Positions 3,558 to 30,455 of a stretch of 56,479 nt of DNA are shown piece by piece; within the stretch, counting starts at the first letter, position 1; each line of letters starts with the position of its first letter. Where the stretch lies: the IMG/VR virus record IMGVR_UViG_3300010160_000055, positions 1 to 56,479 of that record. The stretch is one strand, 5' to 3'. Both the position numbers and the translations under genes were made by a program. Source of the DNA: a virus. Taxonomy: Duplodnaviria > Caudoviricetes. The notes under the pieces are model-generated. The model did no database searches, was not told where the DNA came from, and saw only the letters and a list, made by a program, of their open reading frames with translations.

Positions 3558-4714
3558 TATCCTACAAATATTACCATTGGAACTTGTTTTAAAGTATCTT
3601 GCAAAAATCCAGCCTCTTGAGATTTTCTTTCCAATTGACTTACCTTTGATGTTTTTTCTAATACATCTCTTAAATTAGTAATTAATGCTTCTTTCTCCGA
3701 TCTAGCATCTGCTAATAAGTCTGCTTGATTTAATGTAGCTTCTGAACCTGGTACCGGTACTGTTGTATACTTACCTCTTACATAAGCTAAAAGTTCTTTC
3801 GAAAGAGCAAGTGCGTACTTGTATATCCACTGTCTTCCTGTAGCGTTTATATTTGCATAAGTTGGATTTTCGTACGGTACATTTGAGATATTTGAAATTG
3901 CTGATGATCCTCCTGCTGTATTTGCTGAATCGTCTAATAGTTGTTTGTCTGTTAGCTTATAGTATTCAAACCAGATTAACCCAGTTGTCTTAGGTGTTGG
4001 AAACAATCTTAATTTATTATCATGAATTTCAAAAGAATATGCTGACTTTCTTACTTGGTCGTTAAATTCAATTGCTTGTACTTTTAATAAGTCGTAAGAA
4101 ATTGGCATTAATAAAAAGTTTACCCCTGGTGAGAATGATCCAAAATCAAATGCATCCATTAAAGATTGAATACCTGTACCTGTTCCTGCATATGGGTCAA
4201 AGTATCTCATAATAGCCGGAGGTGCTTCGTAGTATACTTTTCTTATTTCTATACCTCCTGTTATTCCTTGATCTATTGCCCACTGTTTTAAATCATACTC
4301 TTGCAAACTTGAAGTAACCATTATAGACCCTTTGTTAAGAGTTACATTTCCTCCTACACCGGCTTCTGTTCCGTATGCTGATGTTATCCTGATAATATTT
4401 TGAAGGCTTGGTGTGGATACTGTACTGTTTAACGCATTGGCTGTACTACCTCCTTCTAATGAAATATAATTTTGAACTGCTAGTGCTTGGTAGACTTCAT
4501 TCCCATAAGTAGTAACTGCTTCTTCAAAGCAAGCAAAAAACGATCCTGAGTTTAATTCAACATCCATTAACGGATATCCTAGACGTATAGCGCAGAAATT
4601 AGCTACTTTTGGTGCTTCTTCTTGAAAATCTAAATCATCATCATAGAATCCAAACGGGGTTGATTGCCCTGCTGTGAATGTTGCTGTTCCATTCCATATT
4701 TGTATATTAGCCAT
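3557..4714 (-). CDS. gp13: Neck protein (gp13-like head-tail adaptor)
   Basis: RLGYPLMDVEL near the N-terminus; WIYKYALAL..E.L..VRGKY...LN near the C-terminus. Confidence 0.75.
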   Translation of the reverse strand: MANIQIWNGTATFTAGQSTPFGFYDDDLDFQEEAPKVANFCAIRLGYPLMDVELNSGSFFACFEEAVTTYGNEVYQALAVQNYISLEGGSTANALNSTVSTPSLQNIIRITSAYGTEAGVGGNVTLNKGSIMVTSSLQEYDLKQWAIDQGITGGIEIRKVYYEAPPAIMRYFDPYAGTGTGIQSLMDAFDFGSFSPGVNFLLMPISYDLLKVQAIEFNDQVRKSAYSFEIHDNKLRLFPTPKTTGLIWFEYYKLTDKQLLDDSANTAGGSSAISNISNVPYENPTYANINATGRQWIYKYALALSKELLAYVRGKYTTVPVPGSEATLNQADLLADARSEKEALITNLRDVLEKTSKVSQLERKSQEAGFLQDTLKQVPMVIFVG

Positions 4715-4725
4715 CTAGTACTCTT

Positions 4726-5148
4726 TTATGTAGTTGCTATTAAATACTCTATTTTTGCACTTGAGCCAGAAGGTTCTACTTTTATTGATCGTATAGTATC
4801 GTATGCAAAATTTGTTAAACTTCCTGTCATAAGTCCTGTGCTAAGAAAAAATGTTCCTCCACCGCTTATAAGCAAGTTTGCAGTACTTCTAGATGAAGAT
4901 ATCTGCAGATTTACATTTGAACCTGTAGTCATATTTGTAATTCTAATATACTTTGTGCTACTAGATACAAAAGCTCCTGCACCTGGTAAATTAGAAAGGC
5001 TAAATAATTCTGTAGTACTTCCTGTAGGTACATTTACTATTCTCTCATCTACATATTCTATATTAGGTATAGTAAATGAATAAGAAGTACCTCTTTCTTT
5101 ACCCTCAATTTTAACTCTTTCTTTTATATAGTATGTAAAATCTGCCAT
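4726..5148 (-). CDS. Hypothetical beta-rich virion protein
   Basis: 140-aa ORF with the late motif 17 nt upstream. Confidence 0.6.
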   Translation of the reverse strand: MADFTYYIKERVKIEGKERGTSYSFTIPNIEYVDERIVNVPTGSTTELFSLSNLPGAGAFVSSSTKYIRITNMTTGSNVNLQISSSRSTANLLISGGGTFFLSTGLMTGSLTNFAYDTIRSIKVEPSGSSAKIEYLIATT

Positions 5149-5183
5149 TTGAATTAGTTTTATTTATAAATAGCAGTTTTTTA

Positions 5184-5870
5184 TCAATCTCTAAAGTCCT
5201 GGTATACTTTTAAAATAGGGGATACAATATCGTGTCTGTGGTTAGCTTTTAATGCAAATATCCTAAATCCTTTTACTTGCTCCTCAACTCTTGTAAGAAA
5301 AGAAAACCCTGTTTCTTTTTTTACTTTTAAATCTATTTGAGCCAAATCCCCGCATATTACCATTTTAGATCCTCTTCCTAGTCTTCCCAGTACTGTCTCC
5401 ATTTGATCTTGAGTTACGTTTTGTGCCTCATCCACAATTACAAAAGAGTTAACAAACGTTCTACCTCTCATAAATGCAAAAGGAACTATTTCAATATTAC
5501 CATGCTCTAATTCTTTATCTACTTTTTCTTTACCATAAAGCATATATAAGTTATGATAGATTGGTGCTAACCAAGGGTCCATCTTTTCCTTTAAATCGCC
5601 CGGTAGGAAGCCTAGTTCTTCTTTAGCTACGGTAGGCCTTGTGATAACAATCTTCTCTACTTCTTTACAGAATAACATATCAAGGGCAGCTTGTACTGCT
5701 ACTAACGTCTTTCCTGAACCTGCCATTCCTTTTAGGACGACTACTGGGTTTTCAATGATAAGTGCTTTTGCTAATTTTTGTTCTTCATTAAGTTGGAGTT
5801 GAAACTTAATTGGGTTTTTCGGTTTTCTCTTTGGAGTAAAAACCTCATCGGTGTGATGGTTAGAAGCCAT
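5184..5870 (-). CDS. phoH: PhoH-family ATPase
   Basis: GMAGSGKT Walker A, LGFLPGDL, FMRGRTF, IVDEAQN, GDLAQID and RH motifs. Confidence 0.95.
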   Translation of the reverse strand: MASNHHTDEVFTPKRKPKNPIKFQLQLNEEQKLAKALIIENPVVVLKGMAGSGKTLVAVQAALDMLFCKEVEKIVITRPTVAKEELGFLPGDLKEKMDPWLAPIYHNLYMLYGKEKVDKELEHGNIEIVPFAFMRGRTFVNSFVIVDEAQNVTQDQMETVLGRLGRGSKMVICGDLAQIDLKVKKETGFSFLTRVEEQVKGFRIFALKANHRHDIVSPILKVYQDFRD

Positions 5871-5905
5871 AAATATAAACTGTATTTGTTTCTAATAAAT
5901 ATACG

Positions 5906-5930
5906 AAAAAAGCCTAGTGGATACTAGGCT
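5906..5930 (-). terminator. Intrinsic terminator
   Basis: AGCCTAGT-ggat-ACTAGGCT stem followed by a U-tract on the minus strand. Confidence 0.8.
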
Positions 5931-5962
5931 CTTTATTATTTATTTTTATTTATTTTAAAATT

Positions 5963-6826
5963 TTAAGTAAAATTAACAGTAAGGGCTGATGGTACTTGTG
6001 ATGCTCCGTTTACTCCAACTCCTGTATTACCTACCAGTGTTATATTGTATGGTGTAGTTTTCTCTATTCGGTAAACATTTCCGTTTGAATTCATAGCGTA
6101 TATGTTACTGTTTTCGATATAAAGTCCATATGGGTTATTAACTGTACCGCCAATGTTAATATCAACCTCTACAGTTCCAGTAGGGTAGCTAAATTGGGTC
6201 GCGTACGTAACGCCAAGTGCAGTATTTGTAGTAATTACCTTGTTGGTTGTTGTTAAAAGTAAATCACCGGCAATATACCTATTGTTCCCGCCTACTACAA
6301 GGTCAAATTTATAAGTAGAAGTTGCAGGATTATTTGTTATATCTAATGTTACTACAGTGTTTGGAGTAACATCTACATTAGTTGTAATTAAAGTTGTATC
6401 ATTAATAGCACCTAACCCTGCTCCTATGGTATGTGGTGTATTTATTAATCTACTAAATGTAGCAGTGAACGGACTTAGTGTTATATTCCACTCTGAAATT
6501 ACAGCACCTGCATTTGTCCATAATTTAGTCTGTGTATGGGCTATGTCTGCCGTATAGATGTAGGTTGAATTTGGTATACTTAACTGTGTGGATGTATTAG
6601 CGCTTGTATTGTATGTGAAGATACGTTTATCACTAGTATTAAATAGGACTGAGGCTTCTACTAGATCTGGTCCTGCTGTAAGTGATCGTCCTTTATTTTG
6701 ATGAATAATCCAATCGTTTAACTCTGTTAAATACTTATAATAATGCTCCATTTGCTGGTTTTCGTTTAGATTTCTCATTGAATCTAAAGTTCTAAACTGC
6801 TGCCAAGTTAATTCTCCTGTACTCAT
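5963..6826 (-). CDS. Putative capsid decoration protein (short helical N-module plus beta-propeller-like domain)
   Basis: Own late motif and terminator directly after the capsid gene; Thr/Asn-rich repeated beta-strand pattern. Confidence 0.5.
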   Translation of the reverse strand: MSTGELTWQQFRTLDSMRNLNENQQMEHYYKYLTELNDWIIHQNKGRSLTAGPDLVEASVLFNTSDKRIFTYNTSANTSTQLSIPNSTYIYTADIAHTQTKLWTNAGAVISEWNITLSPFTATFSRLINTPHTIGAGLGAINDTTLITTNVDVTPNTVVTLDITNNPATSTYKFDLVVGGNNRYIAGDLLLTTTNKVITTNTALGVTYATQFSYPTGTVEVDINIGGTVNNPYGLYIENSNIYAMNSNGNVYRIEKTTPYNITLVGNTGVGVNGASQVPSALTVNFT

Positions 6827-6863
6827 ACCTTTTATTTTATATAAATATAGGAACTTTTTTTAT

Positions 6864-6892
6864 AAAAAAAAAGAGAGCTAAAAGCTCTCTTT
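6864..6892 (-). terminator. Intrinsic terminator after the major capsid gene
   Basis: AAGAGAGC-taaaa-GCTCTCTT stem with a long U-tract. Confidence 0.85.
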
Positions 6893-6913
6893 AATTTTCT
6901 ATTCTAAGTCAGA

Positions 6914-8542
6914 TTACACTGTTGTTAAGTCTGAGATAAAGATTTTACCATAGAATTCTGGTCTGATCATTTTCTTAGCATAACGAGTCATGATACCTTT
7001 TCTTGGAGTGAAGGTAGCTGGATCGTATACTAATGGAGTCATGATTAATGGAATGTATGGAGCATAAACTGCACCTGTTTCCAAGAATTGAGATCCTCTG
7101 TATCCTAACAATACAACGTTTTCAGTCATGTAAGGGTTTTTATAAACTCTGAAACGAGAATTTAAATTTCCTACTTTTTGAACTCCCATTGCAAAGTCTA
7201 GTTTATCACCGTTTGTTTCTGCTGCATATCCAGGAATTGATTCTAAGATTGTAGCTACAGAAGGAGAACATACTAAGAAGTTAGCTCCACCTCTTAAAGT
7301 TTTTTGGTGAATTTTGTTAGATACTTTTTGTACTTTAGTACCTAAAGTTCCAAACCATTGACCTTGAGTGTTGTAGTAAGCTGATGCTGTAGTAGACCAG
7401 TTAGTACCTGTCCAAGTTTTGTTGTTAGCTGCTGACCATCTTTCAGTTGTAGCTGCATCTTGAATCAACATATCCATTAACTCTAAGTCAATCTCCATAG
7501 AGATGTACTCTGATAATAATGAAGTTAATTCTGCTTCAGCGTCAATTGAGTGGTAAGCATTCAAATCTTGTGCGAACTCTGGAGTCCATTGTGCTTTTAA
7601 TTTTCTTGTTTTAGCAACGATTGCTTCAGAAGCAAGAGTAACGTTAATTTCTGGGATAGAAATTGGAGAGTTAGTTGTGTTGTCCTCGAAGTCACCTCTT
7701 GAGTTATCAGCTGGTTGTTTTTGGTATTTAACTTGTGCTGTGAATGAACCAGTTGTTACTGCTGAGATACCGTTAGTTGTATCACCAGCTTTTGCTACTA
7801 CGAATACAACGTAAGCACCTGCTGCAGATTGAGATACGAATGTAAATTCTGGGTTAGTTGTTACGTTTATAGAAGCTGATTGTAATCTGAATGCTCTTAC
7901 ACCTTCCAAGTCTGCTCCTGATAAAGAAGAAGTTTGAACTGCCATAGTAAAGTAGTTAGCTAAAGCAAGATCTTGGTTATATCCAATTGAAGCAGATACT
8001 GCTGATCCTGAAGTAGTTAATACACCTGCATAAGAAGCAGAGTTAATTGAGTATCCAAATTGACCTGCACCGTATAAACCTCCGTTTACATCTTCGTCTA
8101 CTGACATTTTATTGTTAGCGTCAGATAGGTTACCGTATAAACTATCGTTTAAAGTTCTACCGTTTGTAGAAGTACCGTATTTAAAGTCTAAGTAAAATAC
8201 AAGACCTGAAGGTAAGTTCATTGGTTGTACAGAAACGAAGTCTTTAGCAGCGATTTGAGCGAATACTTTACGTACTAATGGTAAAGCTACTCCAGCCCAT
8301 TGCTCAGCACCTGTTCCACCTGCACCGTTTGTTGTTCCAATTGCTCCAGTACCTGTTTGAGAAGCCTCAGATACGATTTGTTTTGCTTGATTCTCAAGAA
8401 TCATAGCCATGTTGTTTCTTTCGATTTCGTTAGAAATACCTTCTAACAAACCTGATTTGGCCCATTTACCAGACAAACGAGCAGCATCTGCTTGTAAAGT
8501 CTTGTAATTGCTAGCCCCTTCGAATAATTGATTTAATTCCAT
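6914..8542 (-). CDS. gp23: Major capsid protein (T4 gp23-like)
   Basis: VQPMNLPSGLVFYL, AKTRKLKAQWTPEFAQDLNAYH, YAPYIPL and FTPRKGIMTRYA motifs. Confidence 0.97.
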   Translation of the reverse strand: MELNQLFEGASNYKTLQADAARLSGKWAKSGLLEGISNEIERNNMAMILENQAKQIVSEASQTGTGAIGTTNGAGGTGAEQWAGVALPLVRKVFAQIAAKDFVSVQPMNLPSGLVFYLDFKYGTSTNGRTLNDSLYGNLSDANNKMSVDEDVNGGLYGAGQFGYSINSASYAGVLTTSGSAVSASIGYNQDLALANYFTMAVQTSSLSGADLEGVRAFRLQSASINVTTNPEFTFVSQSAAGAYVVFVVAKAGDTTNGISAVTTGSFTAQVKYQKQPADNSRGDFEDNTTNSPISIPEINVTLASEAIVAKTRKLKAQWTPEFAQDLNAYHSIDAEAELTSLLSEYISMEIDLELMDMLIQDAATTERWSAANNKTWTGTNWSTTASAYYNTQGQWFGTLGTKVQKVSNKIHQKTLRGGANFLVCSPSVATILESIPGYAAETNGDKLDFAMGVQKVGNLNSRFRVYKNPYMTENVVLLGYRGSQFLETGAVYAPYIPLIMTPLVYDPATFTPRKGIMTRYAKKMIRPEFYGKIFISDLTTV

Positions 8543-8568
8543 TGTGGTTTTTGTTTTTTTATTTTCTA

Positions 8569-10032
8569 TTATTTAATGATTCCTGCTAACTTCTGCCATC
8601 TAGATACTTGCTCAGATACTTCTGATAGGATTTCTTTTGGTGCAGTTGTTTGTGCGTTACCTGTTGCTTTAGAAGCAAAAGATCTGTGCTCTTTGATTGC
8701 AGCTGGTTTAGCAACTACATTTTTAGAAACTGTTTCGAAAACTAATTTTACTTCTTTAACTGTTTCTGCTTTGTCAAAAGCTGCGATAACGTTTACTTTT
8801 TGACCTTCAGATAAGTTGTTTGCTTTAAATACTTTATTTACATAAAGTAATTTTGCATTTATAAGGTTAACTTCTTGAAGTTGGTTTCTTAAAATTTTAA
8901 CTGCTTTTAAAGCTTCGTTTAATTCCTCAGACTCTTCAGATACGTTTCTTGCTCCTGCTGCGGCATTACCAATATCGGTTAATTTATCTCCGATTTTTTT
9001 TCCTGCTGCACCGAAAGCACCGTCTTTAGCCATTTGGTGTACTTTAGCCATAATTGCTGATAATCCGAAAATTCCAGCTGAACCTAAAGCTCCAACAACT
9101 AATTGTGCGGTGTTGTTGTTTAAGAATGGGAAAGCATCAATAAGTTGGTAGATAATATCGATGTTTTCATCCATATTGTCAACTTCTTCATTTACTGCTT
9201 CAACTCCTTCTCTGTTTTGGGTAACTCTGGCTGCTGTTCCTCCGGCTTTTTGTAGTTTTTCAGCAAAAGATTTAGCTCCACTTCCAAATTTTCCAGCTAG
9301 AGCCATATCCATTACTTTAGCAACAACTGCAGAAAATGCTGTAAGACCTGCTGCGCCAAATGCTCCTATAACTAGTGATGCGCTTGACATGGTTAAGAAT
9401 GGGAACATTTCAACAAGCTGTTTAGCTCCTTCGATATACTCCGGTCCCATTTCGTTTAATTCACCTTCTTCCATGTACCCGTCGTTTGCACCTTTTTTGT
9501 CTAAATCTTTTGGATTTTTACTGTAAGATGTTTCATCCATACCTTCTAATTCTGCTAATAATTCGTTAATGTCGATCTCTTCAGAATCATCCATACTTGT
9601 CAAGTCGTCTCCTTCTGGAGCTTCTTCACCTGCTTCGATTTCTTCTTCGTGACCTACTTCTTGTGCAACGATGTCTTTAATAAGGTTTTTTAAATCTTCA
9701 ACAGACATGTCTTCAATTTCTAATTCCTCTTCTTCTTCGTTACCTTCTTCTTCTCCTTCTTCTTCAGCAGGAGTTTCTTCTTCCTCTTCTTCGTTTAAAT
9801 CTCCAATATTACCGTGCTTTGCTGGATCTTCAGAATAATCTTCTGATCCTGCTTGGTTTAATGTAGCTTCATCCATTTCATCCTCTTCCATTTCCTGTAG
9901 CTTTTGAGCTAACATTTCTTTTAGATGTGGAGTCAATGTTTCTTCTAAAGCTTCCTTAGCATTGGTAATTGCAGCTTCACGAATAGTTTTAGCTTCTGCA
10001 ATTGCTTGCTTAAATAAATCTTTGTTTGACAT
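8569..10032 (-). CDS. Prohead core scaffold (gp22-like) with two internal hydrophobic repeats
   Basis: Acidic coiled-coil protein just upstream of the capsid gene; many L/V/M-x-E sites; ends RWQKLAGI. Confidence 0.8.
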   Translation of the reverse strand: MSNKDLFKQAIAEAKTIREAAITNAKEALEETLTPHLKEMLAQKLQEMEEDEMDEATLNQAGSEDYSEDPAKHGNIGDLNEEEEEETPAEEEGEEEGNEEEEELEIEDMSVEDLKNLIKDIVAQEVGHEEEIEAGEEAPEGDDLTSMDDSEEIDINELLAELEGMDETSYSKNPKDLDKKGANDGYMEEGELNEMGPEYIEGAKQLVEMFPFLTMSSASLVIGAFGAAGLTAFSAVVAKVMDMALAGKFGSGAKSFAEKLQKAGGTAARVTQNREGVEAVNEEVDNMDENIDIIYQLIDAFPFLNNNTAQLVVGALGSAGIFGLSAIMAKVHQMAKDGAFGAAGKKIGDKLTDIGNAAAGARNVSEESEELNEALKAVKILRNQLQEVNLINAKLLYVNKVFKANNLSEGQKVNVIAAFDKAETVKEVKLVFETVSKNVVAKPAAIKEHRSFASKATGNAQTTAPKEILSEVSEQVSRWQKLAGIIK

Positions 10033-10054
10033 TTTAATTTGTGTTTGTTTGTCG

Positions 10055-10122
10055 TACGCTTATTAAGTAGTAGCGTAATAGTGTTTTACTTTGTAGTAGA
10101 TATCACATAAGGGTCGTGATAT
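10055..10122 (-). promoter_or_regulatory. Structured 5' leader of the scaffold-capsid transcript (two hairpins)
   Basis: Stems ATATCAC/GTGATAT (10100-10122) and TACGCT/AGCGTA (10055-10077) lie between the late motif at 10131 and the ATG at 10032. Confidence 0.55.
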
Positions 10123-10130
10123 ATTCTAAA

Positions 10131-10137
10131 ATAAATA
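10131..10137 (-). promoter_or_regulatory. Putative late promoter TATTTAT (representative copy)
   Basis: The same heptamer is at 5166, 5895, 6841, 13470, 15359, 16964, 18326, 23163, 28043, 32343, 38889, 40241, 49258, 51611, 55724 and 55988, mostly 14-27 nt before an ATG. Confidence 0.7.
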
Positions 10138-10157
10138 TACATATATTTTCAAAACAT

Positions 10158-10184
10158 AAAAAACCCACCTTTTTAGGGGTGGGT
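10158..10184 (-). terminator. Intrinsic terminator
   Basis: ACCCACC...GGTGGGT stem plus U-tract; near-identical to 16980-17005. Confidence 0.8.
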
Positions 10185-10207
10185 GTGTTGTTTTTTATAT
10201 GTTCTGC

Positions 10208-10468
10208 TTAGATTACTTCTCCTGCAATATCCTGTAACATCTCTATAGCAGTCTCTAATGTAACCTCTATCTCGTTGAATTGATTTTCTTCTGAGGATAT
10301 TTGGTTTTGTTCTTTATACTGTTCTATTATTTGCATTGCTTGTTTCATATGATTTAAAGCTTCATATGCCACTTCTTCTGCACTTTCATTTAATGGTTTA
10401 GAAGTATTTTCTTTTACTAGTTTTGTCAAGTGCTTTGCTTGCCATTGATGTATGTCAAAATTTCCCAT
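10208..10468 (-). CDS. Small helical protein with an MGNFDI...LVKE/LNE leader
   Basis: Coupled to the protease gene by TAATG; leader resembles those of 17022 and 29841. Confidence 0.6.
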   Translation of the reverse strand: MGNFDIHQWQAKHLTKLVKENTSKPLNESAEEVAYEALNHMKQAMQIIEQYKEQNQISSEENQFNEIEVTLETAIEMLQDIAGEVI

Positions 10469-11049
10469 TATGCTCTTAATATGTTGTTAATAATAGAATC
10501 TAATCTATCGTATTTTCCTACTACTTGTTTTCCTTCGTTTAATGAAATTGGATTCATAAATGCTCCTTGTGTAGAAGGATTAGAAACGAAATCCCAACAT
10601 ACTAATTCAAAGTCTGGTTGAACCATTAAAGTTCCTTCGTTTGTTTGTGTTACTGATCCTGTTCCTCTAGAAGAAATTCCTATTGTATGTCCTCCTTTTA
10701 GTATCTCTTTTACAATATTTCCTTAAGGTGTGTTTAACAATTCTACTTTTCCCATCAAGTCATCACCTTCCCACCATAATTCTTTTACGACGTGTGATGC
10801 ATTCTTAAGAGATACAATTGCTGATTCTGGGTGATCTAATTCTCCGTAGGCATTTCCTACCTTAACAAAATTCTCTACATAGTTTTTTACTTCTTCTTCA
10901 AGAATTTCTCTTTTATAGATTCTTCCGTTTTGGTTTTTAGCTCCTGCTCTTTGCATAATACCTGTTACCTCAAATACACCTGGTTTGGTTTTTGATTCGG
11001 TAAGAAGTCCTTTGAAAGGAGTTACATTTACTAATAATGGATTGTTCAT
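10468..11049 (-). CDS. gp21: Prohead protease (gp21-like), 193 codons with an in-frame TAA at 10723-10725
   Basis: NQNGRIY and GELDHP precede the stop. The frame continues GNIVKEILKGGHTIGISSRGTGS...WDFVSNPSTQGA...LNE to TAA at 10468. Confidence 0.9.
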
Positions 11050-11054
11050 CTTTG

Positions 11055-12251
11055 TTATTTTAATAATTCAGATAACGATTTTTTTGTTTCCATCATATCT
11101 CGTTGTGCCTGTACCCATGCATCTGAGTTCATTGCTCTATCTGATGGTGATTCGTATCCTTGGTATGCTGGATCTCCTTCGTATTCTGTGTCAATGTCAT
11201 TGTAGTCAACCTCATCCTGTTCTCTGTTATTCCAAATATGTTGAAGTTCTTCGATATCTCTTCTTAAGTCTACTCCTGGATGTTGAGCTTTTACACTTTG
11301 TAAAAAATCCCTTAATGTACCTGCTTCTTGAGCTAAAATATGAATATCACTCATTTTAGATTCGTCTAAGTCTCCATCAATAAAAGGATCTGAAAAGTTT
11401 TCATCATCGTAGTCGATTTCGTCTTGGTCTTCATATCCTCTTGGATGTGAAATATCGTCTGCTGGATCATCTCCGTACATATCGAACTCATCTTCACCGT
11501 TATAATCCTCAACATCTACTACCGTTTCTGATAATACTTTTTTGATAAGTTTTTTAAAGCCTTCTTTTAATGCAGCTTTTTTCATACCGTTAAAAGTATC
11601 AACAGTATTTTTTGCTGTTACAGGAATCATCTTATCATGAAGGTCTACTTTTGGATTAACTCCTGCTACTTGATTTGTATAGAAGATTGAATCTTTTGCT
11701 AAGTTTTTAGCTACTTTTGCTAACGCTTTTGCATACTCTTCTGCTGTCGGTGTTCCTTGTACTCCTAATCCTTCTAATTCAACTCTGATTCCTCTAAGTA
11801 TTTGTTCGTATGGATATTTGTCCATATCGTTAGTTGGCTTGTATCTGTAATCGGTTAAGCTTTTATTAGTAAGTCTTGCTTCTTTTACAGTTTCTTTTAA
11901 TTTTATCTCTCCTGATAAACCTTGTTCATCATTCCAGTACTTTATTACATTTGGCTCAGCGTTTGTAACTTTGTATTTAATGTCTGCACCTGCAAATCCA
12001 GCTAGTATACTTTCTTTTGTTTTGTCACCTGTCTTTGCTGCTTGTATTAGCTTTTCCATGTGAGCTTTTACTGGATTTTCTTTTTTAGTTTCTTGAATCA
12101 TTCCTCTGTTCTTTAGAATCTGAACTGCATCATCGTATCCGTTAAAACGAGTTACTAAATTTGGAAGTTCTTTTCTAGCATCAGCTAAAAAATTCTCTTT
12201 AGAAAATTTTCCTTCTTGAATTCCGTTATATTTTTCTTGTAATGTTCTCAT
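11055..12251 (-). CDS. Modular acidic head-associated protein
   Basis: Modules separated by LQE/IQE/VKE/LKE/LSE/LDE; the GIRVELE...NL.KD..FY module recalls DUF5661 (unverified). Confidence 0.6.
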   Translation of the reverse strand: MRTLQEKYNGIQEGKFSKENFLADARKELPNLVTRFNGYDDAVQILKNRGMIQETKKENPVKAHMEKLIQAAKTGDKTKESILAGFAGADIKYKVTNAEPNVIKYWNDEQGLSGEIKLKETVKEARLTNKSLTDYRYKPTNDMDKYPYEQILRGIRVELEGLGVQGTPTAEEYAKALAKVAKNLAKDSIFYTNQVAGVNPKVDLHDKMIPVTAKNTVDTFNGMKKAALKEGFKKLIKKVLSETVVDVEDYNGEDEFDMYGDDPADDISHPRGYEDQDEIDYDDENFSDPFIDGDLDESKMSDIHILAQEAGTLRDFLQSVKAQHPGVDLRRDIEELQHIWNNREQDEVDYNDIDTEYEGDPAYQGYESPSDRAMNSDAWVQAQRDMMETKKSLSELLK

Positions 12252-12252
12252 G

Positions 12253-12600
12253 TTATTTATTCTTTTTATCTGATGCTTTTTTAGTTTTCTTTACTAATTC
12301 GTAACCCATTTCCTCTGTATGCTTAACTGCTTCACTATTCATCATTTCTTCTTCTGATACAAAAGCATGTGGAGTGTTATAGTGAGCTTCATCTAAGTAA
12401 TCAAACATCTTAGTATGAGAAGGATGTTTTGGTCTTGGTGCTGCTTTAAACCCTAGTCTTGCCGATGCTTTAGTTGCTGCATTAGTTCCTTGCCCTGGTT
12501 TAGCAAAAGCATTTGGTGTAGAATATCCTCCTACATCTCCTGATACGCTCATTTCTTCTAATACTTCGTGTATTACTTTTACTATTTCAGATCTTTTCAT
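12253..12600 (-). CDS. Small head-associated protein (leader ...EVLEE; Y(S/N)TPxAF twice)
   Basis: ORF in the head operon; the motif repeats after LEE and LDE. Confidence 0.6.
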   Translation of the reverse strand: MKRSEIVKVIHEVLEEMSVSGDVGGYSTPNAFAKPGQGTNAATKASARLGFKAAPRPKHPSHTKMFDYLDEAHYNTPHAFVSEEEMMNSEAVKHTEEMGYELVKKTKKASDKKNK

Positions 12601-13451
12601 AAAGCTCTTAACTCGTTTACTAATTCATAGTATTGCATTAAAGAAACCAAATGATTATCATCTACCTTTTGAGTATTTCTTACAGGAATAATTGCTTTTT
12701 GAATTTCTTCTAATTTAATCTTTACTACTTTATCAGTAATGTTCTTTTTCAATTTAGAAATTTCTGTTTGCAATTTAGTCATTTCTTCGTTTACTACGTT
12801 TCTTAGTCTTGCTGAAGAGTTAACTGATACTATAAATTCTTTTAAAATGTTTTTTTGTTCTGGAAGTAGATCTTTATATTGATTGTTGAATTTTTCTAAC
12901 AGTATTTTGTATGTTAAAAGTCTTAAGTCTTTATCATATTTTGAATACTCTTCAATTAAAGCGTCTTTTACTTGTCCGCTAGCTGATTTGCTTTGAGTTA
13001 AGTGTTCAAGTATTGTAGTCTTGTTGTCAACAAATACATCTAAGTCTACAAGTCCTGCTGTTGATTGTGCTTCCATTAAGCAGTATAGAGCTGCTAATGG
13101 TTTGTAAGACTCTACTTTAATAGAGAAGAACTCTTCCAAATCGTAATGATTTTTAAGCTCTTTTATTAACTCGTACTTCTGCTTTTTAAGTAAATTAAGA
13201 TCTAGTTTTCTAGAAATCTCTATAATGGTGCTAAGTATTGATTCTGCTTTTTTTGGACCTACGCCTTTATTTTTTAATACAAAATCGTATAATTTAAACT
13301 CTCTTACTAGTGTTGTGTTTCCTGTATAAAATTTCCTTAGTACTGTTAGAGCCGGGGAATCTCTTTTAGATAAGGTATCCGCTGCTATTTGCTTTACTAA
13401 TAGTTCAAATATTAAGCCTGTGTTTTTATACTTACTGTGTTTAATACGCAT
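12597..13451 (-). CDS. Helical hypothetical protein next to the portal
   Basis: 284-aa ORF with the late motif upstream. Confidence 0.65.
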   Translation of the reverse strand: MRIKHSKYKNTGLIFELLVKQIAADTLSKRDSPALTVLRKFYTGNTTLVREFKLYDFVLKNKGVGPKKAESILSTIIEISRKLDLNLLKKQKYELIKELKNHYDLEEFFSIKVESYKPLAALYCLMEAQSTAGLVDLDVFVDNKTTILEHLTQSKSASGQVKDALIEEYSKYDKDLRLLTYKILLEKFNNQYKDLLPEQKNILKEFIVSVNSSARLRNVVNEEMTKLQTEISKLKKNITDKVVKIKLEEIQKAIIPVRNTQKVDDNHLVSLMQYYELVNELRAL

Positions 13452-13480: not shown

Positions 13481-15340
13481 CTAGTTATCTAAATCTTTGA
13501 TATTTGCTTCATTTAAGAGATTTGATTCTTTCTCTATCTCTTCTTCAAAGATATTTTGCTTTTTAGGTACAAATAAGTTTTTATTTCTAAGAAAAACAGA
13601 CATTGTATTATTTATACTTTCTTTTACATTTTCATTATAACTTGGATAACCGCCTTTCATTCCATGTACCCCTAATCTGTCTCTTCCTCCAGCTGGATCT
13701 TCCTGTGTACCTATTACTGAGAACTTCTCTCTCGGTCTTCCTATAGGTGACTTTTCATCATACCCTGCTGGTAGCTCACCTTGTTCTCTTGCTCCATATA
13801 TTGAAGCTAAGTCGTGGGGTGTTCCAAAAGATTGACCTGTTGTTACTGGATCGTTTCCTTCATTTTCAATTTGTGATAATCTAAATGCTCTCTTACCGTC
13901 TTCTCTAATAAGATCTCTCATCTCGTTATAACTGTCTTCTGAGATATCAAATAATTTATCGTAAATATAATCTGAGGAGAATAGCTTAGTTGCTTGCATT
14001 TGTGTTGCTAGATCAACTTTTTCTTTCCAAAGAGCTATTTTTTCTTGTTCATAAATGATAGAAGGAGTAGTTAACTTAATCTCAAAGTTTACTAAAGACT
14101 CTTTATCAAATCCTTGAGAGTATAAGTGTACTAGTCCAATTTTTGTCAATTCACTTTCTACAATTCTCTGAAGTCTTTCTACTGTTCTAGCAAAACGTAT
14201 GTCTTCTGCTGCAAGTGTTGCTTTACCTGTAAGGTCTTTTTCGTATCCAAAATATGCTTTAGGTACTTTTAAGGCAGCAAACATCTTATCTCTTAAGTAT
14301 TCAATATCGTTTGTACCATCATACTCTAATCCTTTTGTTGTTTCAATTTTTGTAGAAGTATCTCCTCCACGAACTGGAAGATAGAAATCCTCCATCATGT
14401 TTTGCATGTTGAATTTTAAGTTATATTGACCTGTTTGTGGATCAACATAAGGAGTTTTCTTAATACTATTGATAGTTTTTTGCATAAACTGCTCAACTTC
14501 ATTAGGTGGAATAGATCCTACGTTAATGTAGAACATTCTCTTTTCAGGAGCTCTCATGATTCTGTGAATCAACATTGCATCCTCCATTAAAGTTAACTGT
14601 TTGTAAATTTTACGAGCTGGTTCAATATATGATCTACCGTAAGGAAGGTAGTTTGTATCTGAGATTAATCTAAAATGTGCTACTTCGTAGTTGTCTAAGG
14701 TAATAGTCTCTTTGTTATTATTTGGAATGTAGTTTGGATCTGACGAAGCTGCTAATCCGTCTGGATCGATTGAGAATGTTACTTTTGTCGGATCTTGTTT
14801 ATCTTCTCCTTCATGTCTTACCATATGGTAAACTGTATAAGGAAGTACATTATAAACACCAAACTTTTCTGATATCTCTAATTTTAAAAAGAAGTCCCCG
14901 TACTTGCACATATTTCTAACCCATGACCATAGGTTAAATTCGATGTTTAATACATCGTAGTATAAATTGTAAAGGACTCTTTGTATGTTTTCGTCTGTAG
15001 ATTTAATTGAAAGAACCTCTCCCATTGGATTCTTTAGTGTAGATTCATCTGCTAATACATCTAAAGTTGATGCTATAATTGCATCTGTATCCATTGCTTC
15101 ATAGTCCGAGTAAAGCTGTACCCTTAATGTTTGGTAATTAAGGTTCGGATTAAATATATTCTTGTTATTATATATGTATAAACGAGAAAACCTATCCAAT
15201 AATGAATTGGTTTGGTATTTTCCTGTTGATTGAATGTGATTAACATCAGCAATCTTCAATTCATCTCCTCCTACATTTCTAACTAGTATATCTGTTGCAA
15301 ACAGTCTCTGGAGTGAATTGAATAAATTTCTTTCTGCCAT
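13481..15340 (-). CDS. gp20: Portal protein (gp20-like)
   Basis: LMEDAMLIHRIMRAPEKRMFYINVG, MMEDFYLPVRG, ALKVP and EDIRF motifs. Confidence 0.95.
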   Translation of the reverse strand: MAERNLFNSLQRLFATDILVRNVGGDELKIADVNHIQSTGKYQTNSLLDRFSRLYIYNNKNIFNPNLNYQTLRVQLYSDYEAMDTDAIIASTLDVLADESTLKNPMGEVLSIKSTDENIQRVLYNLYYDVLNIEFNLWSWVRNMCKYGDFFLKLEISEKFGVYNVLPYTVYHMVRHEGEDKQDPTKVTFSIDPDGLAASSDPNYIPNNNKETITLDNYEVAHFRLISDTNYLPYGRSYIEPARKIYKQLTLMEDAMLIHRIMRAPEKRMFYINVGSIPPNEVEQFMQKTINSIKKTPYVDPQTGQYNLKFNMQNMMEDFYLPVRGGDTSTKIETTKGLEYDGTNDIEYLRDKMFAALKVPKAYFGYEKDLTGKATLAAEDIRFARTVERLQRIVESELTKIGLVHLYSQGFDKESLVNFEIKLTTPSIIYEQEKIALWKEKVDLATQMQATKLFSSDYIYDKLFDISEDSYNEMRDLIREDGKRAFRLSQIENEGNDPVTTGQSFGTPHDLASIYGAREQGELPAGYDEKSPIGRPREKFSVIGTQEDPAGGRDRLGVHGMKGGYPSYNENVKESINNTMSVFLRNKNLFVPKKQNIFEEEIEKESNLLNEANIKDLDN

Positions 15341-15370: not shown

Positions 15371-16945
15371 TTATCCTAATAGCCAGGTAAGGTCTTCTTG
15401 ACCATTAGGCGTTTCCATAAGATAAGGATTATTTTGCATTGGAGCAACGTTATATACACCTTGAGTTCTTTGATTAAGACTTACAAAAGAGTTCATTGTA
15501 GCCCTAGAAAGGTCCATTCCTTGCTGTCTCATACGGATGGCTGTATCTCTAACGTATAAAGCTGTAGCAAAAGCCATAATTAAATCGTCGTTATAACCTG
15601 ATTGTGCCTGTGCCTTACCGTTTCTCCATATGAATACTCTCATTTCGGCTAACAATCGCTTAGACTGCACTATAACCGATCTTTCCCGTATGTATTCAGT
15701 CATTTTGGCAATGACTAAAGGCCTTGTTTTTAGAGACATTGTAAATCCTGGTACTAGTTTATCTCTTTCATACTTGGCCATATATGATTCAACTGTTTCA
15801 TTATCTGATCTAGATGAATAGTACAGGTTTTTATACTCTCTGGATATTACTTGCTCAATGGTTGACCATCCTATATTAGCATTTTCTATTACAAGTAATG
15901 CATCACAGTACTCTGTTGCTATTCCTACCAGTACGTTTCCGTATTCTTTAGGAGATATCTTACCTTTATATTCGGCAACTTGTGTACAACTCTCTATATC
16001 AAAGACATGGAAGCCGGAGTAATCGGTAGAATCTCCTCTAGCGACATCGGCAACAACCATATAAGACTTTTGATAGTCAGGTGATTCCCATATCCAAAGA
16101 TTTCCATCTACACCTCTTTTTTCCATTGGTTCTTTTACATATGTTTCTTCATAGAAGGCCATATTCTCAACCTCAATTACTGAATCTCCAGATGATAGGA
16201 AGTCACAATCACACTCTTGAGCGGCTTGTTTCTCTCCTAACTGTCTTGTTTGTTCATCTCTCCAGTCTTGCTTTCTTTCTGGATGTACATCCCATTTTAA
16301 TTTAACAGGTACAAATCCATTCTCTCCTGCTTCAGCTTTTTCCCATGTTTTATGGAACCAGTTTCCTACACCATTTGGAGTAGAAAGGGCCATACACTGT
16401 CCACCTGTTGCTAAGGTTTGTTGTGCTGCAGTAAATGTTTCTTCAATATTATCAATGAAGGCTGCCTCATCTATTAACAGTAGTGATACCGCTTCCGAAC
16501 GAGCTGCATCTGCATTAGAAGATTTAGCTGTTATTTTAGAACCGTTTTTAAGTCTAAGAGATAGTTTATTCTTTTCTGTAAAAGGAAGTTGTAACCATTT
16601 TGGTAGATTCTCATACATGAAAATCGTTTTAGTTACAAGGTTTCTAGCTGTTGCTTGAGTAATTGCAAGTGCTAGTACGTTTTTATCTTTATGAAAGATC
16701 ATTAACCATAGAGCATATGCTGAGGCTAATGTGGAGATTCCTAACTGTCTTGATTTGAGAGTTACTATAAACTTTTCGTCTCTAAATAAGTGAAGTACTC
16801 CTTCCTGGAATGGATAGAGGTTAAATAAAATCCTACCTCTTGTTGGATGTTGAATATAGCAATACTTCTTCATAAAGTAAGCCGGATCTTTTGCACACTT
16901 AATGTACTCTTGCGCAACTATTTGTTTTATATCTTGTTGTGACAT
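15371..16945 (-). CDS. terL: Terminase large subunit (gp17-like)
   Basis: KSRQLGIST Walker A, LLIDEAAF Walker B, STPNG coupling motif; nuclease residues VADVARG and DDLIMA; no intein evident. Confidence 0.95.
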   Translation of the reverse strand: MSQQDIKQIVAQEYIKCAKDPAYFMKKYCYIQHPTRGRILFNLYPFQEGVLHLFRDEKFIVTLKSRQLGISTLASAYALWLMIFHKDKNVLALAITQATARNLVTKTIFMYENLPKWLQLPFTEKNKLSLRLKNGSKITAKSSNADAARSEAVSLLLIDEAAFIDNIEETFTAAQQTLATGGQCMALSTPNGVGNWFHKTWEKAEAGENGFVPVKLKWDVHPERKQDWRDEQTRQLGEKQAAQECDCDFLSSGDSVIEVENMAFYEETYVKEPMEKRGVDGNLWIWESPDYQKSYMVVADVARGDSTDYSGFHVFDIESCTQVAEYKGKISPKEYGNVLVGIATEYCDALLVIENANIGWSTIEQVISREYKNLYYSSRSDNETVESYMAKYERDKLVPGFTMSLKTRPLVIAKMTEYIRERSVIVQSKRLLAEMRVFIWRNGKAQAQSGYNDDLIMAFATALYVRDTAIRMRQQGMDLSRATMNSFVSLNQRTQGVYNVAPMQNNPYLMETPNGQEDLTWLLG

Positions 16946-17021: not shown

Positions 17022-18308
17022 TTAGAATCTTTCTCGTCTACCTTGAATCTTTTCTTCTAGCATATCTAACAATGTTACTGTAAATTGGAATGTTCCTTCC
17101 ATCTCACGGTCCATTAAGGTACCTGCCGTTACTACATCATGTAATAAATTTAATGCGTTTCTAGCGTCTACTATTGCTTCTGTATATTTTCTTGGAATAT
17201 CCATAGCTTGCATTCTTTCTTCTTTCAGTAATCTTGAATTAGCAGTGATTTTATTTTCTGCTAAGAATTTTCTTAGGTCGAAAGCTCCTTCCTGTAAAGC
17301 TTCTACTTTTTCTGCTTTTGCAGCTGAAGCTGGTTTGTTGTTTTTGTTAAATTTCTTATCGAATGCTGCTTTTAACTTTTCTGCTGCTTTTTCTAACTTT
17401 GCAGCATCTGTTGCTAATTGCTTTAAGTCTTTTGGACTAATGTGTGCAGCATGTTCACTTTCTTCCATTCTCTTTGCTTTCATTCTTAGAGCTTCAGCAA
17501 TCTTTTTCATTTGCTCCATTTTATGCTTTTCTGCTACCTCGTTGGTTCCGTGGTCGATGCTTTTCATTAATTCATCGATTGAGTTGTATTCAGGTATTAC
17601 AGTTTCGTCAGCCATTTCATCTTCTACAACCATTTGAGAGGCTGGATCTGGTAATGGTTTTCCTGTTAGTGCATTAGTACCAAATTCATGGTCAGGATTT
17701 TGTGGGTGTGGGTTAGGGATTTCTTCTTCTTGTATTCCCATGGCTCTTTGAACCATTTCTACTAAACGTCTTTCTTTAGCAGTTAAGTTTGTTTCTTTCA
17801 TCATTGTATTTTCGTTTACTTGTTCATGTTTTGCTGCATTTTTCCACATTGCTGCTGCTGCTACTTTTTGTCCTGCTTCTTTTGAGCCGTATTTTTTCTC
17901 TGCTGCTTTTTCTATTTTCTCAAAGCCAGCTCCTTTTTTACCAATATCTCCACCATGTTTAGCTTTTTTTACTAAAGCTGATTTTTCTTTAGCTGTCATT
18001 CCAGCTGATGGTGCTTTTTCTTGTAAGTACAATTGATTATCGTGAATTAACTCTCCTACTAATCCGTAATTTTCTTCTTGAAATTGTTCTAATTCTTCAT
18101 CTGTTAATGGAGTTCCATCTTCGTAATCTGCTGCTACAATATATGCATCTACAAAGTCTGGGTAATCATTCATGTCGATATTATCGATTTCAATTGAATT
18201 AATGTCAACTGGTTTTCCGTTAAACTCTATTCCTTCTGAAAGAAGTTGTGCATTTTTAGTAAGTTTATTCTCTGTTAAGAATGTTCTTAAGTTAAAATTA
18301 TCTGCCAT
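17022..18308 (-). CDS. Modular putative internal head polyprotein
   Basis: Leader FNLRTFLTENK..LLSE repeats internally as FDLRKFLAENK..LLKE; acidic and basic modules are separated by x-x-E sites. Confidence 0.65.
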   Translation of the reverse strand: MADNFNLRTFLTENKLTKNAQLLSEGIEFNGKPVDINSIEIDNIDMNDYPDFVDAYIVAADYEDGTPLTDEELEQFQEENYGLVGELIHDNQLYLQEKAPSAGMTAKEKSALVKKAKHGGDIGKKGAGFEKIEKAAEKKYGSKEAGQKVAAAAMWKNAAKHEQVNENTMMKETNLTAKERRLVEMVQRAMGIQEEEIPNPHPQNPDHEFGTNALTGKPLPDPASQMVVEDEMADETVIPEYNSIDELMKSIDHGTNEVAEKHKMEQMKKIAEALRMKAKRMEESEHAAHISPKDLKQLATDAAKLEKAAEKLKAAFDKKFNKNNKPASAAKAEKVEALQEGAFDLRKFLAENKITANSRLLKEERMQAMDIPRKYTEAIVDARNALNLLHDVVTAGTLMDREMEGTFQFTVTLLDMLEEKIQGRRERF

Positions 18309-29840: not shown

Positions 29841-30455
29841 TTATACTGCTGCTATTTTATTTGCTAATTGTACAACTTCTGATGATTTAAAAGCAGATAA
29901 TCCACCTTCTAGTCCTTTTCCTATTAAGTTATGAGCTTCCATTGCTTCTGCACCACTTGATACTGCTGCTGCAACAAGCATTGCTGCGTATACTCCATGT
30001 GCTACTTTATACAATTCAGAGGTTTCATCATGTGGGTCTTGCTGTCCATATCTCTTTGGAAAAGCTTTTTTTACCATTCCTCCGATTACCTCTATGTACT
30101 TATGTTCTAAGCTATGTCCAAATTTCTTAAGAGCATTTCCAACTACTGTTCCACTTTTTTTATCTTTTTGGAATAAAGAAGACATTCCGTTTACTCCTTT
30201 TCCTAATAAAGAAATGATACCTGGTGCTCCTACTATTAATCCAAGAGTCATTGACTCGTCTAATTCCCCGTCTTTTGGAGATGGTTTAATTGTACTTGTA
30301 CCTTGTTGAAGTAAAGCTAAAGCTCCATTTAATCCTTGTTTTGCATCTTGATCTGCTTCAGGATCTGCTTGTGGTGCTACTTCTGCTTCTAATATTTTAG
30401 AGTTAGGTGTTAACTTATTTTCTACTAAGAATTTTTTTAAATCGAAATTATCCAT
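29841..30455 (-). CDS. Leader-bearing protein with hydrophobic helices
   Basis: MDNFDLKKFLVENK..ILE leader; hydrophobic stretches LGLIVGAPGIISLLG and GVYAAMLVAAAV. Confidence 0.6.
   Translation of the reverse strand: MDNFDLKKFLVENKLTPNSKILEAEVAPQADPEADQDAKQGLNGALALLQQGTSTIKPSPKDGELDESMTLGLIVGAPGIISLLGKGVNGMSSLFQKDKKSGTVVGNALKKFGHSLEHKYIEVIGGMVKKAFPKRYGQQDPHDETSELYKVAHGVYAAMLVAAAVSSGAEAMEAHNLIGKGLEGGLSAFKSSEVVQLANKIAAV

Follow-up and report, generated by a model that had tools for sequence, protein, structure and literature searches.

The window analyzed here is the whole virus record IMGVR_UViG_3300010160_000055, which comprises 56,479 nt, is approximately 35% complete according to CheckV, and carries nearly all of its genes on the minus strand. 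This analysis concerns the open reading frame (ORF) at 8569..10032 on the minus strand (protein P0001, 487 aa; ORF and translation), which is most probably the prohead scaffold at the position of T4 gp22, an assignment based on gene position, composition, and predicted helicity and not on sequence. The centre of this protein is a cassette zone whose architecture is almost uncoupled from its flanks. According to a scan with profile hidden Markov models (HMMs), the cassette of the window consists of a short remnant of a basic module (S) followed by two copies of a hydrophobic module (H). The protein is composed of the following parts, with motif conservation given in rows of the family alignment and a slash marking the bond after the glutamate:

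9892..10032, minus strand: conserved N-terminal part, aa 1–47, with most alignment columns invariant
9550..9891, minus strand: acidic spacer, aa 48–161 (charge profile), closing with the conserved EIDINELLAE anchor (in 193 of 222 sequences)
8930..9535, minus strand: cassette zone, aa ~167–367, where the DNA homology to relatives breaks
9466..9531, minus strand: short remnant of a basic, disordered S module (TSYSKNPKDLDKKGANDGYMEE; S-module HMM, E = 1.6e-11)
9451..9459, minus strand: L-N-E motif upstream of module 1 (P1 = Glu194; [LIVM]xE in 31 of 34 rows)
9199..9438, minus strand: H module, copy 1, aa 199–278 (HMM, 116.5 bits; genome search, E = 2.5e-37)
9166..9195, minus strand: inter-module linker with V-N-E (Glu282) and M-D-E (Glu289), kept in 29 of 34 and 31 of 33 rows, respectively
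8926..9165, minus strand: H module, copy 2, aa 290–369 (HMM, 114.9 bits; genome search, E = 1.0e-37)
8914..8943, minus strand: V-S-E (Glu366) and L-N-E/A (Glu373) at the C-terminal junction, in 22 of 35 and 35 of 35 rows, respectively
8572..8913, minus strand: conserved C-terminal part, aa 374–487, with eight conserved [LIVM]xE motifs (35 of 35 rows) and predicted pieces of at most 2.5 kDa

An initial annotation of the window had described two paralogous hydrophobic repeats of approximately 80 aa in this protein. Both are present at the place described, and the strings quoted there correspond to aa 205–254 and 296–345. The bounding motifs were likewise found as named (LNE at 194, VNE at 282, MDE at 289, VSE at 366, and LNE at 373), and the reported range of 8935–9450 extends from just after the codons of LNE194 to those of VSE366. 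The charge profile agrees with the description of the surrounding protein as very acidic: outside the repeats the sequence is strongly acidic, and extremely so in the N-terminal half, where the net charge reaches −13 per 19 residues at aa 81–110. The two H copies are anciently duplicated, the halves aa 191–281 and 282–372 sharing 37 of 91 residues (41% identity; BLASTP, E = 3e-20). Their Kyte–Doolittle maxima over 19 residues are 1.62 and 1.97, with approximately 30 uncharged residues in a row. Within the 56-kb record, which represents approximately 35% of the genome, H was found in the scaffold only. The ratio of nonsynonymous to synonymous substitution rates (dN/dS; four comparisons) is 0.28–0.68 for H, 0.28–0.45 for the acidic spacer, and 0.03–0.27 for the two ends (0.03–0.08 for the N-terminal part).

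With the whole scaffold protein as query, 4683 of 8000 scored candidates proved to be relatives (E ≤ 1e-3), and its last 120 residues alone yielded 5929 relatives of 6308 scored candidates. Among the 120 matches listed for the C-terminal part, identity in this part was 83–99% and full lengths ranged from 278 to 523 aa. When 16 relatives were read side by side, the ends were nearly invariant and the middles completely different. For a census of these middles, each centre was taken as the segment from the EIDINELLAE-type motif to LQEVNL. Of 222 proteins and locus ORFs, 193 contained the two anchors, and the other 29, mostly fragments, were left out for lacking one of them. The 160 unique centres obtained have lengths of 40–258 aa. 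Profile HMMs grown from 16 self-chosen seeds were collapsed into six superfamilies, which account for 257 module instances: H (hydrophobic; n = 114), A (amphipathic, ‘EGLxxxIK...W/FIDK’; n = 67), P (n = 42), S (basic, disordered; n = 22), K (n = 8), and H5 (n = 4). The modules are approximately 35–85 aa long, belong to at least six unrelated families, and occur zero to four times per scaffold in 27 architectures; 18 centres contain no module, 41 contain one, 88 two, 12 three, and a single centre four. S modules are present at full length in the relatives P0003, P0006, and P0078.

The alignment of related scaffolds proposed in the initial annotation revealed an insert that varies in presence and copy number, as 87 of the 160 centres contain no H, 32 contain one, and 41 contain two copies. 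H is over-represented in this set, since the initial search was run with the entire query; among the 120 matches listed by the C-terminal-only search, 73 have no H, 17 have one, and 30 have two copies. The contrary possibility named in the same annotation, that the repeats form a constant soluble core domain of such scaffolds, is excluded, since the insert varies and is replaced by unrelated modules behind flanks that are up to 100% identical.

On the nucleotide level, the high-scoring segment pairs of a blastn comparison with 80 related IMG/VR loci stop at 9532–9546 and restart at 8916–8942. Only 12–16 of these loci align across 8980–9519, compared with 79–80 across 8530–8889. Of 682 scaffold pairs with at least 97% identical C-terminal domains, 546 differ in architecture, and pairs with 100% identical C-terminal domains include an H-H versus an S-K-K-K cassette. 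The neighbouring protease is 92–96% identical among phages with quite different cassettes. It follows that the cassette zone is exchanged by recombination. H is an accessory and dispensable element: two complete genomes (162 and 168 kb) contain no H anywhere, and two others with H-type scaffolds, 78% and 96% complete, carry it nowhere but in the scaffold.

The modules are framed by short motifs of the kind recognized by prohead proteases. As described in the available part of a published account, T4 gp21 cuts after L/I-x-E, and gp22, which is present in 576 copies per prohead, is chopped into fragments (PMC9026906). Within 12 aa of the module borders, [LIVM]xE occurs upstream of 245 and downstream of 238 of the 257 modules. 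When 110 unique H modules were aligned together with their 15-aa flanks, the motif stood directly before the module in 110 of 110 cases and shortly after it in 105, and the interior of H was almost motif-free apart from V-x-E in 23 of the 110. The linkers contain 638 motifs versus 403 ± 16 in 200 composition-preserving shuffles. Corresponding values are 207 versus 83 in the N-terminal 50 aa and 1015 versus 395 ± 17 in the C-terminal domain, the observed count being reached by 0 of 300 shuffles in both regions. Because the sequences are related, these trials are not independent and the significance of the motif counts is overstated. The idea that the modules are kept free of sites by selection was rejected, as 131 motifs were observed in H versus 87 expected from composition.

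The scaffold ORF of the window carries 25 [LIVM]xE motifs, of which 19 are conserved in at least 80% of the rows. Its N-terminal part is dense in [LI]-x-E, with the sites AIAE/A, TIRE/A, ALEE/T, HLKE/M, and KLQE/M kept in 31–35 of 35 rows. Given the many L/I-x-E motifs, the protein would be chopped into small pieces: predicted cuts at the conserved motifs yield end pieces no larger than 2.5 kDa, an acidic piece of 12 kDa, and module peptides of 7.5 and 8.7 kDa.

The gene order around the scaffold ORF, read along the direction of transcription, is large terminase, T4-type portal, three unassigned ORFs, S77 protease, a small ORF, scaffold ORF, and gp23-type capsid gene:

15371–16945: large terminase
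13481–15340: T4-type portal
between portal and protease: three unassigned ORFs of 284, 115, and 398 aa
10468..11049, minus strand: S77 (T4 gp21-type) prohead protease (PF03420, E = 2.8e-20 on the first 108 aa; phrog_207, E = 1.1e-28)
10208–10468, minus strand: small ORF of 86 aa between the protease and the scaffold ORF
6914..8542, minus strand: gp23-type major capsid protein (PF07068, E = 2e-81)

The corresponding order in T4 is portal, gp67, gp68, gp21, gp22, gp23. The closest isolate, Flavobacterium phage vB_FspM_immuto (genus Immutovirus, 160 kb), has a gene order identical to that of the window and a scaffold with two A modules, and the phage analyzed here is an Immutovirus-like T4-type myophage of Flavobacteria. 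Like the gene of T4 gp22, the scaffold gene is located between those for the S77 protease and the gp23-type capsid protein. Its product is, as in T4, acidic and helical, with many L/I-x-E motifs and an N-terminal I-A-E/A, the I-A-E-A resembling the L-I-A-E-A of gp22. It differs from gp22 in its length, which is nearly twofold larger (487 versus 269 aa), in its cassette zone, a hypervariable central region that contains foldable or hydrophobic modules, and in having no detectable sequence membership. Neither the scaffold ORF nor six diverse relatives matched PF25623 (T4_CASP) or phrog_237 at E ≤ 1, whereas T4 gp22, used as control, scored 6.8e-89 and 1.6e-92, respectively. Comparison by hhalign of two scaffold-family alignments with gp22 gave probabilities of 0.6% and 4.5% over just 33–34 C-terminal columns, and this sole and weak match falls in the C-terminal third of gp22. 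Pfam and PHROGs searches with the full-length protein, with segments of it, and with the H module revealed no significant family even at E ≤ 1–10 (the best PHROG score, phrog_24278 ‘membrane protein’ with E = 0.011, is not significant), and a PDB sequence search with the H and scaffold profiles had no match. Homologues of the scaffold are mislabelled in public records, for example as ‘DNA polymerase phi-like protein’ in Immutovirus (NC_055915, 125626–126867; locus L081, 7001–8242), and carry the Joint Genome Institute (JGI) names ‘UbiJ’, ‘pseudopilin PulG’, and ‘membrane protein YtjA’ among metagenome proteins, probably because of their acidic and Gly/Ala-rich stretches.

The reading frame of the S77 protease is broken by an in-frame TAA at 10723–10725 (codon 109), behind which read-through continues the family sequence. 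All of the 55 aligned protease relatives have Ser (n = 35) or Ala (n = 20) at this position. The near-identical IMG/VR contig L001 has TCA there, indicating a single C-to-A change. The stop codon may reflect an error of assembly or a minor variant, or it may be a genuine ochre mutation; with respect to a changed genetic code, no tRNA was found in the window and its other ORFs are intact. Contig L001 represents the same phage, yet over 5803–13036 (7.2 kb) the two sequences show 10 mismatches and three gaps of 2 nt, one of these gaps falling in the last codons of the scaffold, which suggests error-prone assemblies. The major capsid protein has V-[SAN]-E at residues 57–59 (8366–8374) in 76 of 76 aligned loci, followed by variable residues, and this motif is likely the propeptide cut; the T4 gp23 counterpart is F-L-T-E(65)/A. 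Conservation of V-x-E in all 76 capsid N-termini supports that the protease accepts V at P3. An internal stretch of the capsid gene (~7720–8040) is variable, as 36–38 of the 80 loci align there by blastn versus 65–80 on either side, and may be a variable insertion domain.

Of 108 unique H modules, 106 have a Kyte–Doolittle maximum over 19 residues of at least 1.6, a value reached by 0 of 138 unique modules of the other families, and the uncharged Gly/Ala-rich run of H has a median length of 30 aa. Each H consists of an amphipathic helix, the uncharged stretch of approximately 30 residues, and a conserved basic helix with K-x-G-x-F-G-x-K-G-K. Conserved positions cluster in the G-x-F-G-x-K-G-K turn and the basic amphipathic helix, with G28 and G52 invariant and K41, G49, G66, and A69 nearly so. 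An AlphaFold2 model of the full protein (mean predicted local distance difference test score, pLDDT, 52) shows four short helices per module, with the greasy run as a hairpin of two 13-aa helices (pLDDT 59–73). A model of H alone, computed with a broader alignment (mean pLDDT 59), has a single 30-residue helix at residues 18–47 (pLDDT 56–67). Both models are of low confidence. Membrane activity of H is therefore a guess, albeit a reasonable one, and H might instead be a soluble Ala/Gly-packed mini-domain.

Carriers of H other than the scaffold were identified with a profile of 20 H modules, which was searched against 1.84 billion representatives (E ≤ 1e-3). Of the 47 proteins detected, a forkhead protein and an S-layer-homology (SLH) protein are spurious, and the remaining 45 had no meaningful Pfam or PHROG assignment. 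Thirteen of the 45 start with the leader N/D-F-[DN]-[LY]-[RK]-x-[FY]-[LI]-x-[ES]. Several small acidic proteins (P0162, P0172, P0174, P0176, P0177, P0190) start with M-S-N-F-D-L-R-K-F-L-A-E and bear one or two H modules. H is also inserted in homologues of ORF 17022–18308, at a single site left vacant in the window's own protein, and is appended to a homologue of the window's ORF 11055–12251. The exhaustive profile search found it on proteins of 61–130 aa as well, and a word-based search for stand-alone H proteins of 32–140 aa yielded none at E ≤ 0.001. Directly before the greasy helix, nearly all H carriers have a [LIVM]-[NDE]-E triplet.

The F-L-A-E at the end of the leader parallels the F-I-A-E of the T4 internal proteins IPIII and IPII, which begin with MKTYQEFIAE/A. 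A back-translated search of IMG/VR with NFDLRKFLAE retrieved 43 loci, in 42 of which the motif is N-terminal, and the leader sits on 29 unique bodies in 10 unrelated families. Because it occurs on many unrelated bodies and resembles the capsid targeting sequence (CTS) of T4, a T4-like CTS system appears to exist in this phage group, and H travels both behind the CTS-like leader and inside the scaffold. Four of the NFDLRKFLAE genes (at loci L083, L089, L095, and L104) occupy the slot between protease and scaffold that is equivalent to 10208–10468, and this slot is a second variable locus. The window's own ORF in this slot (minus strand) has a degenerate leader, MGNFDIHQWQ, and aligns in 4–5 of 80 related loci.

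Two further ORFs of the window, 29841–30455 and 17022–18308 (minus strand), bear the CTS-like leaders MDNFDLKKFLVE and MADNFNLRTFLTE, respectively, and neither has a PHROG family. The former has Gly-rich hydrophobic stretches after an L-D-E motif. The latter repeats the leader as GAFDLRKFLAE at aa 342 and thereby resembles a fusion of two units that each bear a leader. Its family, encoded just upstream of the terminase, has a cassette slot of its own: in P0161 and P0164 (54% identity to ORF 17022–18308) an H module has been inserted ahead of the conserved TLTAKERRLVEMV block, a place without H in the window's copy, and another block of approximately 60 aa is present in ORF 17022–18308 and P0161 and absent from P0164.

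Direct observations comprise the architecture and exchange of the cassettes, the motifs that frame the modules, and the occurrence of H on other carriers. The explanation that we favour by a modest margin over all others taken together is that the scaffold also functions as a polyprotein that delivers accessory peptides to the interior of the head and would thus be an in-cis variant of the T4 internal-protein system. A role of the scaffold as cargo carrier had been put forward in the initial annotation, and this part of its proposal gains support from the variable insert, the framing motifs, and the other carriers of H, some of which have a CTS-like leader. Release of the peptides, their persistence in the head, and a membrane-active part as ejection conduit, in superinfection exclusion, or as effectors, which the same annotation had suggested, are putative. 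According to this explanation, the S77 protease, once activated in the prohead, would break the scaffold frame down to fragments no larger than 2.5 kDa, which exit the head, and would also cut at the motifs that frame the modules. The modules would be freed intact as peptides of 6–9 kDa at scaffold stoichiometry, which by analogy to T4 gp22 may mean hundreds per head, would stay with the DNA, and would enter the host at injection in the manner of the T4 internal proteins. Cassette diversity would then represent host-specific accessory functions. As the weakest step, H would insert into or perturb the host inner membrane. The full version, in which phages of a widespread aquatic T4-like group inject hundreds of copies of interchangeable 6–9 kDa peptides and H inserts into the host inner membrane from inside, is doubtful; under it H might, for instance, depolarise the membrane, block superinfection, or disable membrane-linked defences.

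Several observations weigh against the carrier explanation. The motif statistics rest on kindred sequences and on modules defined from our own seeds, and the set of 160 centres is enriched for H. Low motif density inside the modules reflects a Glu-poor composition and not avoidance. H evolves fast, with a dN/dS like that of the acidic spacer, and the two AlphaFold models are weak and contradict each other on the greasy stretch. The protease gene of this record carries a TAA, the scaffold shows no family membership with gp22 in Pfam, PHROGs, or hhalign comparisons, and hundreds of hydrophobic peptides in a DNA-filled head would be physically awkward. Furthermore, most scaffold fragments of T4 exit the head (PMC9026906, available part).

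This fate of the T4 fragments is also in line with the most serious rival explanation, in which the modules are structural filler that tunes core volume or assembly kinetics and is degraded or expelled after cleavage, with the diversity arising from neutral drift and recombination. It would fit the 18 of 160 module-free centres and the wide range of centre lengths, which show that the frame tolerates almost anything, as well as the similar dN/dS of H and acidic spacer and a motif density within modules that is no lower than composition predicts. However, the modules are discrete recurrent families with residues conserved across very divergent carriers, their framing by motifs on the upstream (110 of 110) and downstream (105 of 110) sides is precise, and filler would not explain why H is appended to non-scaffold and leader-bearing proteins. 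Overall, we regard filler as unlikely, about on a par with the full injection version. The presence of H on several unrelated carriers would suit a different function, that of an address or co-assembly tag whose greasy helices associate and thereby recruit H-bearing proteins into the core. Helices rich in small residues often self-associate, as such a tag would require. Yet in the two H-type genomes that are 78% and 96% complete H is confined to the scaffold, leaving no partner to recruit, it is likewise confined there in this 56-kb record, albeit a partial one, and H carriers often have a CTS-like leader of their own, which makes the tag improbable.

The membrane-like hydrophobicity of H could also indicate a transient anchor that tethers the core to the inner membrane until the protease frees the prohead, similar to T4 proheads, which are built at the membrane and come off it following proteolysis (PMC9026906, available part). 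Over half of the close relatives, with flanks and proteases 90–97% identical, manage without H, the shell would enclose hundreds of H copies, and H also occurs on small leader-bearing proteins; a tether of this kind is thus very improbable. We give equally little credence to the possibility that the ORF encodes another abundant core or internal protein and that the real scaffold is among the unassigned ORFs between portal and protease, of which there are three. The missing sequence link to gp22 families would agree with it, but the ORF lies just ahead of the capsid gene, as do its counterparts in T4 and Immutovirus, the protein is helical and acidic with a gp22-like I-A-E-A N-terminus, and the only hhalign match, although weak, is to the C-terminal third of gp22.

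If the scaffold is a carrier, the T4 internal-protein system is a close parallel. The internal proteins IPI, IPII, IPIII, and Alt are described as non-conserved proteins of about 8–20 kDa (IPI roughly 8 kDa) that are loaded via the scaffold core; their 10-aa CTS is removed by gp21 after L/I-x-E, approximately 360 copies of each are kept in the head and injected, and their diversity has been ascribed to an arms race (PMC9026906, in the part available). The scaffold modules resemble them in size (6–9 kDa), in hypervariability, and in being framed by the same type of motif, and related phages put H behind a leader ending in F-L-A-E, comparable to F-I-A-E in T4. In contrast to the T4 proteins, the putative cargo is located in cis and in tandem within the scaffold and would need a cut on both sides; the H modules of the window have no leader of their own, and one module family is membrane-like hydrophobic. 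A second parallel exists in the giant phages SPN3US and phiKZ, whose ejection (E) and inner-body proteins, organized in paralogous families, have long propeptides that are cut at several Glu-ending motifs by a gp21-like protease; of 14 mapped cuts in SPN3US, 13 remove an N-terminal propeptide and the 14th is the protease's own C-terminal one (PMC10052503, available part). These phages share with the Immutovirus-like group a homologous prohead protease and short Glu-ending motifs at head-internal proteins. They differ in retaining a large C-terminal mature protein and discarding the propeptide, whereas the parts presumed to be retained here are small internal scaffold modules.

The T4 head core and internal-protein system are known, and the module families H, A, P, K, and S, which match no Pfam, PHROG, or PDB entry, are new. 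No publication on variable cassettes inside a phage scaffold was found in the open full-text literature, as judged by titles and abstract openings, and a full-text literature search found none on the Immutovirus virion. Scaffolds are regarded as disposable assembly aids, and the injected internal proteins of T4 as products of separate genes with a targeting leader. If the carrier explanation is true, a scaffold with swappable, protease-framed modules would constitute a second, very high-copy route to load accessory proteins, and under the full injection version the cassette zone would act as a rapidly evolving arsenal alongside the CTS-led internal proteins. The scaffold family is abundant, with 4683–5929 relatives among the public metagenome proteins scored, and since a cultured relative, Flavobacterium phage vB_FspM_immuto, exists, the explanation is directly testable. 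It would provide a natural blueprint for loading T4-type heads with foreign peptides, and the unmatched module families would represent a pool of candidate host-takeover or anti-defence peptides.

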